From Escherichia phage WPEC3, in the sequence record PV611058: DNA of 64,000 nucleotides. One strand, given 5' to 3'. Each line of letters begins with the position of its first letter. Within the stretch, counting starts at the first letter, position 1. The notes under the pieces are model-generated. The model saw only the letters and a list, made by a program, of their open reading frames with translations. It did no database searches and was not told the origin of the DNA. Made by a program: the position numbers and the translations under genes. Positions 34,777-35,253 of the stretch are shown here, piece after piece.

Positions 34777-35253
34777 TTATTTTAGAATGTATAAGTGTTT
34801 TTCTGCATTAACCAGTCTGTGGTCAATGATTTCTTTGATAACGTTCCAGTTACCACCGCCTAAATCGGCTCCAATTTTCGGGAAGTGTACATGAACAGTG
34901 CGTTCAACGTTACATAAGTAATTGAGTTGTTTGAAAACATCATCGATTGCATCATAACTTACATACTTAGAACCGTCATTACCATAGTACTTTTGGGTAA
35001 TGCAGTTTGCGATAAGCAAATCATCACTTATAGAAGAATATGAAATTTGTCCTGTTCTTAGAAATCCCATTTCCTTTTCATATGCTTTATAATCATCATA
35101 TGCCATCGGATAACGATTTCTTAGTTCTTTTGCAAAACCCGAACCCATCTTACCCTGTGCATTACAACCATGAGCGATTATATGCAACGCGGTTTGATCA
35201 TCAGTAACAGTGTTGAATAATTCAAACAAATTACCTAGGTGTTCATGTATCAT
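34777..35253 (-). CDS. macrodomain protein, TARG1/DarG-like (Macro_2-type)
   Basis: IIAHGCNAQGKMGSGFA near the N-terminus and HFPKIGADLGGGNW near the C-terminus mirror the TARG1-type signatures H-C-x(4-5)-MGAGIA and PRIGCGLD. Confidence 0.6.
   Translation of the reverse strand: MIHEHLGNLFELFNTVTDDQTALHIIAHGCNAQGKMGSGFAKELRNRYPMAYDDYKAYEKEMGFLRTGQISYSSISDDLLIANCITQKYYGNDGSKYVSYDAIDDVFKQLNYLCNVERTVHVHFPKIGADLGGGNWNVIKEIIDHRLVNAEKHLYILK

Follow-up and report, generated by a model that had tools for sequence, protein, structure and literature searches.

Known macrodomains acting on DarT-type ADP-ribosylation

DarTG systems stop phages through ADP-ribosylation of phage DNA, and phage macrodomains that serve as anti-DarT factors (AdfM) are already known, with reports of 2025-2026 describing them for T4 and for phages that form a nucleus. 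In case of T4, the factor is Tk.4 (AdfM, anti-DarT factor Macrodomain): a transposon screen on DarTG2 gave tk.4 as the sole hit, its deletion sensitises the phage, and T4 needs Tk.4 to plate on a DarTG2 host, the evidence being purely genetic and published as a preprint (bioRxiv 10.1101/2025.11.20.689424). The AdfM of chimalliviruses is PhiKZ gp104, a jumbo-phage macrodomain that stands alone and frees DNA of the ADP-ribose attached by DarT2 (Cell Rep 2026, PMC13309987). Among bacterial proteins, SCO6735 of Streptomyces coelicolor (PDB 5E3B) hydrolyses the ADP-ribose that DarT has attached to thymidine in ssDNA and protects E. coli against DarT; its Gln85 is essential, as the Q85A variant is inactive, its Lys34 is important for the activity on DNA, and its mobile loop has been proposed to act as an ssDNA clamp (PMC9411070). 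The ALC1-like class to which the locus described here belongs further comprises DarG, human TARG1/OARD1 and the yeast ADP-ribose-1''-phosphate phosphatase Poa1p (PDB 6LFQ-6LFU).

A phage macrodomain of the ALC1-like class

The window, i.e. the whole stretch of 64,000 nucleotides of Escherichia phage WPEC3 (PV611058) that was analysed, belongs to a jumbo phage that infects E. coli and is a member of the PBECO4/121Q group, phages of which are under characterisation for therapy against APEC and UPEC strains. For the gene considered here, the original prediction had given an ORF of 158 aa at 34777-35253 but no strand, and this ORF proved exact: it lies on the minus strand, with its ATG start at 35253-35251 and its TAA stop at 34779-34777, and stops crowd the plus-strand frame of the same interval (Table 1). 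The two loop motifs that had been quoted are both found verbatim in the translation. The gene is single-copy, and with a GC content of 0.354 versus 0.367 for the window, it bears no compositional sign of a recent horizontal acquisition, an origin that was considered and rejected. Upstream of the gene is a gap of 51 nt with a hairpin, possibly a terminator or an element for RNA stability or processing, and the link of this hairpin to the regulation of the macro gene is putative; with 3 terminator-like sites versus 2.0 expected in the scan, it is statistically not distinctive, and promoter-like sites were at background (18 versus 16.8 expected). In records of near-identical phages, the same gene is annotated as ‘phosphatase’, ‘macro domain-containing protein’ or ‘Appr-1-p processing domain protein’, and the literature on phages Sharanji and fEgEco12 does not discuss it.

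Table 1. Features of the macrodomain gene and of the region upstream of it (positions in the window)
Feature	Position	Strand	Basis
Macrodomain gene, 158 aa, stop included	34777..35253	minus	ORF list and translation
First ADP-ribose/phosphate-binding loop, residues 28-41, HGCNAQGKMGSGFA	35131..35172	minus	translation, alignment to SCO6735, BT1257 and T4 Tk.4
Gln87, codon CAA	34993..34995	minus	alignments: column of TARG1 K84, DarG K80 and SCO6735 Gln85
Long mobile loop after Gln87, residues 88-97, KYYGNDGSKY	34963..34992	minus	alignment, conservation counts
Second phosphate-binding loop, residues 125-136, PKIGADLGGGNW	34846..34881	minus	translation and alignments
Ribosome-binding site, GGAG	35260..35263	minus	6 nt before the ATG, read from the sequence
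Hairpin, 10-bp stem	35271..35294	minus	terminator-like scan and sequence

The AlphaFold2 model of the window protein (pLDDT 94.1, pTM 0.90) supports the earlier claim of a phage macrodomain, the predicted fold being a three-layer alpha/beta/alpha sandwich with a central beta-sheet. A Foldseek search of the PDB gave 230 matches at E<=0.001, of which the best ones that carry a name are macrodomains, with BT1257, SCO6735, Poa1p, TARG1 and DarG on ranks 1-15 and with coronavirus Mac1 and YmdB lower. TARG1 and DarG, with which a structural comparison had been suggested as a check, are both among the top Foldseek matches. The highest similarity is to BT1257 of Bacteroides thetaiotaomicron (PDB 2FG1/2AFC), with Foldseek TM values of 0.80-0.84 and a phmmer E-value of 1e-15 against the PDB, followed by SCO6735 with E=3e-11, while the best DarG matches reached 8e-4 (Taq DarG) and 8e-3 (Mtb DarG). 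By its closest structures and sequences, the protein belongs to the ALC1-like class, and not to the MacroD, PARG or viral Mac1 classes. As the E-values of the PHROG, PDB and database matches (PHROG 335 profile, E=4.5e-46; 182 database relatives at E<=1e-5) go along with a confident model that matches macrodomain structures, the ORF is far beyond chance.

Profile searches had also been suggested as a check, and here the outcome was mixed: Pfam Macro (PF01661) covered 115 of its 118 profile positions at E=5.7e-4 but scored 20.2 bits, just below the 22-bit gathering cut-off, and Macro_2 gave no match to the window protein at E<=1. A precomputed PF01661 match is present in many members of the clade, and a score that falls so narrowly short of a sequence threshold is no argument against the macro fold. 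Profiles for DarG itself matched only in part, with 33 bits against a cut-off of 250 for NCBIfam NF048014 (profile positions 20-139 of 338) and 39 bits for PADLOC DarG (positions 19-136 of 329).

The active site and its comparison with known systems

Conservation was counted in a MAFFT alignment with 121 relatives of 39-99% identity, the TARG1 sequence in the alignment being checked against PDB 2LGR. In the first loop, His28 (119/121), Asn31 (120/121) and Gly39 (119/121) are kept, the former two being the counterparts of His24 and Asn27 of SCO6735. At position 87, all 121 relatives as well as T4 Tk.4, BT1257 and SCO6735 have Gln, whereas TARG1, Taq DarG, Mtb DarG and PhiKZ gp104 have Lys in this column, so that the window protein reads ITQK where both DarGs carry FPTK. 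In the second loop, Pro125 and Gly128 are invariant in the family, and Gly132 occupies the column of TARG1 Asp125, in which the family has G or A and never D. Since His28, Asn31, Gln87 and the loop glycines are, with these counts, invariant across the 121 relatives, purifying selection on a catalytic site is indicated.

Judged from these aligned residues, the active site is of the SCO6735/BT1257 (Gln) type, and not of the TARG1 or DarG type. The length of the mobile loop agrees with this: we regarded as SCO6735/BT1257-type a mobile loop that is about 5 residues longer than in TARG1/DarG and contains basic residues, and the loop of the window protein is of that kind. It is similar in length to those of BT1257 and SCO6735 and exceeds those of TARG1, DarG and T4 Tk.4, and Y90, G91, G94, K96 and Y97 are nearly invariant in it, with K or R at position 96 in 112 of the 121 relatives. 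At the position equivalent to Lys34 of SCO6735, the window protein has Ser38, which is Ser in 110/121 and likewise in T4 Tk.4, and the nearby K35 is K or R in 80/121.

SCO6735 and BT1257 are the best matches in both sequence and structure, and, like the window protein, they have Gln at the catalytic position, the His/Asn pair, a second loop with GG.W and a long mobile loop. We know of no function for BT1257. The two are bacterial chromosomal proteins and basic (pI about 9), in contrast to the mildly acidic window protein with a pI of 6.0, and the residue before the Gln is Gly in SCO6735 and Thr in the window protein; T4 Tk.4 (pI 5.9) and the AdfM of PhiKZ (pI 5.05) are acidic as well.

In case of T4 Tk.4, the relation is supported by several searches. 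Tk.4 is also a member of PHROG 335 (E=1.3e-65), BLASTP with the window protein found it at E=5e-12 and 29% identity, the best structural match in BFVD is ‘tk.4’ of Acinetobacter phage 133 (E=2e-12, TMq 0.83), and the clade profile scores Tk.4 at 84 bits versus 47-51 bits for DarG, TARG1 and PhiKZ gp104. Both are stand-alone phage proteins (about 155 aa in T4) from E. coli myoviruses, and both have the AHGCN motif, T-Q at the catalytic position and a P(K/R)IGA..G.GNW loop. They differ in the mobile loop, which is short in Tk.4 but long and SCO6735-like in the window protein, and in the neighbourhood, which is tk/vs in T4 and CCA-adding enzyme/Nudix/PTH2 for the window gene, and the phenotype in this pair is known for T4 only.

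PhiKZ gp104 stands alone in a jumbo phage with the same job as proposed here for the window protein, but it represents the other subclass, i.e. the true DarG2-type: it matches Mtb DarG at E=9e-25, keeps the Lys of FPTK and scores 133 bits with PADLOC DarG, and the window protein matches it over 46 N-terminal residues only. Moreover, gp104 acts inside the phage nucleus, and the comparison does not imply chimallin or a nucleus for the PBECO4/121Q group.

DarG and TARG1 are structurally close (TM 0.71-0.85), and both phosphate-binding loops are common to them and the window protein. Therefore, the assignment as TARG1/DarG-type in the original prediction can be retained with respect to class and loops, but not with respect to the catalytic residues, as K80 of DarG and K84 of TARG1 are replaced by Gln87, and Asp125 of TARG1 by Gly132. 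Similarly, the protein is DarG-like in class but not in architecture, as it is a single domain that has neither the C-terminal DarT-binding domain nor an adjacent darT. Poa1p shares the HxCN motif, but its match is partial, covering the N-terminal half at E about 2e-6 with TM values of 0.69-0.74, and is weaker than those of BT1257 and SCO6735. The equivalent of Poa1p His23 is present (H28), and that of Ser30, a residue that the Poa1p crystallographers reportedly mutated, is the variable position 35. It is from Poa1p that the ‘phosphatase’ label in phage annotation comes.

Proposed role and alternative readings

We propose, with a probability of roughly 0.6, that the window protein removes DarT2-type ADP-ribose from thymidine in DNA. 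In an E. coli host with a DarTG2-type system, DarT2 would ADP-ribosylate thymidines in single-stranded phage DNA and thereby block replication. The window protein would counteract this as a stand-alone, presumably catalytically competent ALC1-like macrodomain ADP-ribosyl hydrolase in which Gln replaces the catalytic Lys. The ADP-ribose would be bound by two loops rich in glycine (residues 34-41 and 125-134), Asn31 and Gln87 would position the distal ribose, and a water near His28/Gly29 would hydrolyse the thymine-ribose bond, which would yield free ADP-ribose and intact DNA. The macrodomain would thus be an orphan antitoxin, i.e. an anti-DarT factor. While both the SCO6735 activity and the T4 Tk.4 phenotype are known from the literature, it is by analogy to them that the same substrate and role appear probable for the window protein, and the cautious core of the original prediction, a candidate ADP-ribose eraser that might reverse the action of DarT, is supported along the same lines by class, SCO6735 and T4 Tk.4. 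The distribution in other coliphages is in line with this: DarTG2 strongly restricts T5, in which tblastn and a profile search found no macrodomain, whereas the DarTG2-resistant T4 has one.

Several observations speak against an anti-DarT2 role. Identity to T4 Tk.4 and SCO6735 is low (27-29%), the mobile loop of Tk.4 differs, Lys34 of SCO6735 is replaced by Ser38, and the pI is acidic, other than in SCO6735 and BT1257. In addition, the gene is found in this lineage among translation- and RNA-linked genes rather than replication genes, and the presence of Sir2 and of several Nudix genes in the phage would suit a function in ADP-ribose metabolism. The last two points each bear on an alternative.

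Next to the macro gene are small ORFs, a PTH2-like gene, a glutaredoxin and a Nudix gene, with darT not among the neighbours; four small flanking ORFs gave no Pfam match, and their PHROGs are families of unknown function only. In the phage and in its relatives of 46-48% identity, a block of HPF-like S30AE, CCA-adding enzyme, Nudix, glutaredoxin, YqeY, macro and PTH2 genes is conserved. The protein could therefore in principle erase ADP-ribose from Glu/Asp-linked protein or from RNA and, alongside the tRNA and translation repair genes, counter another host ADP-ribosyltransferase toxin or defence that acts on translation. Because both SCO6735 and TARG1 are active on protein ADP-ribose with a Glu/Asp linkage as well (PMC9411070), which speaks for this reading, the substrate range cannot be read from the sequence. 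However, the synteny of the block is confined to one phage lineage. In other lineages, the gene is found near genes of replication or anti-defence: one homolog is flanked by an ERF recombinase and a DnaB helicase, and another, on a T5-like contig, is two genes away from the anti-Gabija gene Gad2. Furthermore, no relative is known to act on RNA in vivo, and for T4 Tk.4, the validated phage protein of this family, the phenotype is one of DNA defence. We thus regard this alternative as unlikely. Its more specific form, in which the macrodomain belongs to a block for the rescue of the translation apparatus and removes ADP-ribose that a host ADP-ribosyltransferase defence has placed on RNA/tRNA or on translation factors, be it instead of or besides an anti-DarT2 function, is distinctly improbable.

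What speaks for an enzyme acting on small molecules? The substrate could be O-acetyl-ADP-ribose made by a phage Sir2, ADP-ribose-1''-phosphate as in case of Poa1p, or an ADP-ribose-based immune signal, and the product would be passed on to a Nudix hydrolase. Poa1p is among the top matches in sequence and structure, the public label is ‘phosphatase’, and such a role has been proposed for Macro domains of jumbo phages by Iyer and Aravind (PMC7824862). The phage indeed encodes a true Sir2 beside a Nudt16-like Nudix, as well as DUF4326 and three further Nudix genes, one of which is 0.8 kb from the macro gene, and the T5-like homolog is located near HD_4 and cpYpsA/SLOG genes. However, the Sir2 gene is about 37 kb away and thus unlinked, and T5 has a Sir2 without having a macrodomain. 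A Tpt1/KptA as source of ADP-ribose-1''-phosphate is not annotated in the phage, as judged from the complete genome of fEgEco12, a 99.7% identical phage that was used for all whole-genome probing. Also, the Ser30 position of Poa1p is variable, and the Poa1p matches rank below those of BT1257 and SCO6735, so that a small-molecule substrate seems quite unlikely.

A reversal of ADP-ribosylation by transferases of the phage itself, which would make the macrodomain a timing switch and a counterpart to Alt, ModA and ModB of T4, is very unlikely. ARTs are frequent in jumbo phages (PMC7824862), and the genome encodes a WGR-domain protein with an unassigned N-terminus of 255 aa, but homologs of T4 Alt, ModA and ModB were not found in the whole fEgEco12 genome (tblastn, E>0.9; all E>=0.9 with the NADAR protein AdfN included), although this exclusion is not firm, as BLAST can miss divergent ARTs. 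No ART is annotated in this genome either, and g226, which adjoins the WGR-domain gene, was rejected as a candidate, since its match to ModA is very weak and nothing in Pfam or the PDB supports it, i.e. the match is noise. Finally, a non-catalytic ADP-ribose binder (a reader or sponge) or an inactive remnant could be suspected from the absence of the Lys and Asp that are catalytic in TARG1 and from the Pfam Macro score just below threshold, but this is hardly credible with a Gln-type site that is the active configuration in SCO6735, that is invariant in the relatives, and that is the same in T4 Tk.4, which is functional in vivo.

The name AdfM spans two subclasses, namely a Lys-type that is DarG-like (PhiKZ) and a Gln-type that is SCO6735-like (T4 and the window phage), and the Gln-type family occurs very widely among phages, 1511 phage records containing homologs. 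The label ‘phosphatase’ of PHROG 335 is too generic, and we suggest its revision. If the translation-block reading were true, the macrodomains of phage counter-defence would have a substrate class that is new for them. With the anti-DarT2 role, the PBECO4/121Q jumbo coliphages join the phages that probably carry an anti-DarT counter-defence, and phages of this group are predicted to plate on DarTG2-positive E. coli.

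Fold and active site of the phage macrodomain

Translation confirmed the ORF and both motifs of the original prediction and placed the gene on the minus strand: a single frame of 158 aa runs from an ATG at 35253 to a TAA at 34779-34777, with a GGAG ribosome-binding site 6 nt upstream of the ATG, and the plus-strand frame is interrupted by numerous stops. The quoted motifs match residues 28-41 (HGCNAQGKMGSGFA) and 125-136 (PKIGADLGGGNW) exactly. A hairpin with a perfect 10-bp stem (AAGGACTCTG / CAGAGTCCTT) and a 4-nt loop takes up most of the 51 nt that separate the macro gene from the 85-aa ORF upstream of it; read on the minus strand, the hairpin is followed by TCTTTTCGGAG. 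It may act as a terminator or as an element of RNA stability or processing, and the macro gene would then be read through or have its own phage-specific promoter.

The encoded protein belongs to the ALC1-like class of macrodomains. It matches PHROG 335 with 4.5e-46, and its AlphaFold2 model, built with 59 homologs as input, is confident (pLDDT 94.1, pTM 0.90). Foldseek against the PDB gave the order BT1257, SCO6735, Poa1p, TARG1, DarG with TM-scores of 0.7-0.85, with viral Mac1 and YmdB ranking lower, and sequence comparison with solved structures ranked BT1257 (1e-15), SCO6735 (3e-11), Poa1p (2e-6) and Thermus DarG (8e-4). The model and both rankings uphold the macrodomain class that had been proposed. 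The Pfam Macro profile gives a nearly full-length match, but its 20.2 bits fall just short of the threshold of 22. DarG models match weakly and only in the macrodomain part (NCBIfam, 33 bits versus a cut-off of 250; PADLOC, 39 bits).

The active site was compared in an alignment with T4 Tk.4, PhiKZ gp104, BT1257, SCO6735, two DarG macrodomains (sequences reconstructed from HMMER alignment output) and human TARG1 (sequence identical to PDB 2LGR). The catalytic lysine of TARG1 (K84), which both DarGs (K80 in Thermus) and gp104 share, is a glutamine in the window protein (Gln87, in ITQK), Tk.4, BT1257 and SCO6735, and the column of TARG1 Asp125 contains Gly132. Among the query and its 120 retrieved relatives, Gln87 is present in 121 of 121, Asn31 in 120 and His28 in 119. 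The strongly conserved mobile loop (residues 88-97) is long, as is typical of SCO6735 and BT1257, whereas that of Tk.4 is short; the DNA-positioning Lys34 of SCO6735 corresponds to Ser38, and Tk.4 likewise has a serine. Gln87, Gly132 and the long loop describe the protein, at the level of sequence, as a Gln-type (SCO6735/BT1257-type) ALC1-like macrodomain and not as a TARG1- or DarG-type one, so that of the predicted TARG1/DarG likeness the ALC1-like class and both loop motifs stand, but not the active-site type. SCO6735 itself lacks the Lys and Asp residues, requires Gln85 (Q85A is inactive; His24 and Asn27 mutants were also studied), efficiently strips off the ADP-ribose that DarT attaches to thymidine in ssDNA, and shields cells against DarT (PMC9411070).

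Relation to the AdfM proteins and proposed function

Two phage macrodomains are named AdfM (anti-DarT factor Macrodomain). A transposon screen on DarTG2 yielded T4 Tk.4 as its only hit, and T4 was sensitised when the gene was deleted (bioRxiv 10.1101/2025.11.20.689424); PhiKZ gp104 clears DarT2 marks off DNA and is required on DarTG2 hosts (PMC13309987). Tk.4 shares PHROG 335 with the window protein, aligns to it with E=5e-12 and 29% identity, and likewise has BT1257 as best PDB match; among predicted viral structures, the closest to the window protein is "tk.4" of the T4-like Acinetobacter phage 133 (E=2e-12, TMq 0.83). In contrast, gp104 aligns to the window protein over 46 N-terminal residues only, matches M. 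tuberculosis DarG with 9e-25, keeping the FPTK lysine, and scores 133 bits on the PADLOC DarG model. A profile built from the clade to which the window protein belongs scored BT1257 at 93, Tk.4 at 84, SCO6735 at 72, the DarGs of Thermus and M. tuberculosis at 50-51, gp104 at 48 and TARG1 at 47 bits. Judged by sequence, gp104 belongs to a different subclass, and the AdfM label now spans two macrodomain subclasses whose active sites differ; the window protein would be a T4-type member on every sequence and model-based structure feature considered.

We propose, with a probability of about 0.6, that the protein is an orphan-antitoxin-like hydrolase, which would use its SCO6735-type Gln/His/Asn site to free thymidine in single-stranded phage DNA of DarT2-type ADP-ribose. 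Substrate and role are here extrapolated from SCO6735 biochemistry and T4 genetics. The predicted erasure of DarT marks gains support, by analogy, from the PHROG 335 kinship with Tk.4 and the SCO6735-type site. If PHROG-335 macrodomains neutralise DarT2, T5, which is strongly restricted by DarTG2, is expected to be without one. Seven diverse macro queries run by tblastn against the T5 genome (NC_005859; E<=1) detected no macrodomain, nor did a profile search covering every ORF of 50 aa or longer, and the prediction survives this comparison of two phages only. T5.105, annotated "Sir2", resembles by eye neither Sir2 nor a macrodomain.

Genomic setting and alternative substrates

The macro gene is part of an extended series of minus-strand genes and is surrounded by a block with links to translation and RNA that is conserved within the lineage.

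Features of the window and of related records
Feature	Order in transcription direction	Position	Strand	Remark
Translation/RNA-linked block		34059-37708	minus
CCA-adding enzyme (tRNA nucleotidyltransferase)	1	36593-37708	minus
Nudix	2	36073-36486	minus
Glutaredoxin	3	35835-36083	minus
Two small ORFs	4-5		minus	no assigned function
Hairpin		35271-35294
Macro gene	6	34777-35253	minus	158 aa
ORF	7		minus	105 aa, no assigned function
PTH2-like ORF	8		minus	125 aa
Neck/adaptor gene	9		minus
Paralogous ORFs		37844-38266, 38253-38666	minus	140 and 137 aa
DUF4326 protein		59674-60000	minus	108 aa; Pfam 2.9e-24 for identical fEgEco12 gene
Sir2 and Nudt16-like Nudix		fEgEco12 85954-87254 (L005:35954-37254)		just outside window
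WGR protein		fEgEco12 91558-92529 (L005:41558-42529)		323 aa, outside window
Metagenomic macro homolog region		L012:4414-6500

The PTH2-like ORF shares 33% identity with a Pfam-PTH2 gene (peptidyl-tRNA hydrolase) in the syntenic locus L014, and metagenomic relatives at 46-48% identity keep the block and add S30AE/HPF-like and YqeY genes. Action on ADP-ribosylated protein or RNA would fit this block, but we regard it as unlikely. The block is restricted to one lineage, and the themes recurring across lineages are only early, anti-defence and DNA-metabolism regions. On a metagenomic contig that is T5-like, a macro homolog with 43% identity has genes for an HD_4 hydrolase and for cpYpsA (SLOG) upstream and Gad2 (anti-Gabija) two genes downstream, which looks like an anti-defence islet, and in a smaller phage the homolog is flanked by ERF recombinase and DnaB helicase. 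In the window, two ORFs of 140 and 137 aa that lie next to each other with a slight overlap are diverged paralogs (33% identity over 85 aa), both matching PHROG 20693, which has no assigned function.

The complete genome of the near-identical jumbo phage fEgEco12 contains one macrodomain gene, a true Sir2 family gene (PF02146, 1.4e-19) directly followed by a Nudt16-like Nudix, three further Nudix genes and a T4-type Pnkp. The Sir2-Nudix pair could be an NAD/ADP-ribose module. That the macrodomain processes ADP-ribose metabolites or signals together with these genes, a role that Iyer and Aravind put forward for the Macro domains of jumbo phages (PMC7824862), is less probable again, as the macro gene is unlinked to Sir2 and T5 has a Sir2 gene (T5.102) without a detectable macrodomain. 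The same authors tied DUF4326 to Macro/NADAR/SLOG NAD-related systems (PMC7824862); in the window, the DUF4326 gene adjoins a 610-aa ORF annotated as nucleotide reductase. The fEgEco12 WGR protein carries its WGR domain, a PARP-associated domain, C-terminally, and its 255-aa N-terminal region has no match in Pfam or PDB. Reversal of ADP-ribosylation by phage-encoded ARTs is highly improbable, as no ART (nor Tpt1/KptA or NADAR) is annotated in the fEgEco12 genome, and a non-catalytic binder is equally hard to reconcile with the invariant catalytic-type residues.

Implications for the PBECO4/121Q phages

The 5 kb around the macro gene are 99.3-99.8% identical to the Escherichia phages EC.P1, fEgEco12, vB_Ec-M-J and CMSTMSU and about 86% identical to PBECO4, all of them jumbo myoviruses with genomes of 350-385 kb from the PBECO4/121Q (Asteriusvirus) group. 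As their records label the gene "phosphatase", "macro domain-containing protein", "Appr-1-p processing domain protein" or "hypothetical protein", the domain call is already public; we found no discussion of the gene in the literature on this group. Also published are the erasure of DarT2 marks by a phage macrodomain and the genetic validation of the same-family T4 member. New are only the recognition that the AdfM name takes in two subclasses and the probable function that homology would assign to the macrodomain of the PBECO4/121Q jumbo-phage clade.
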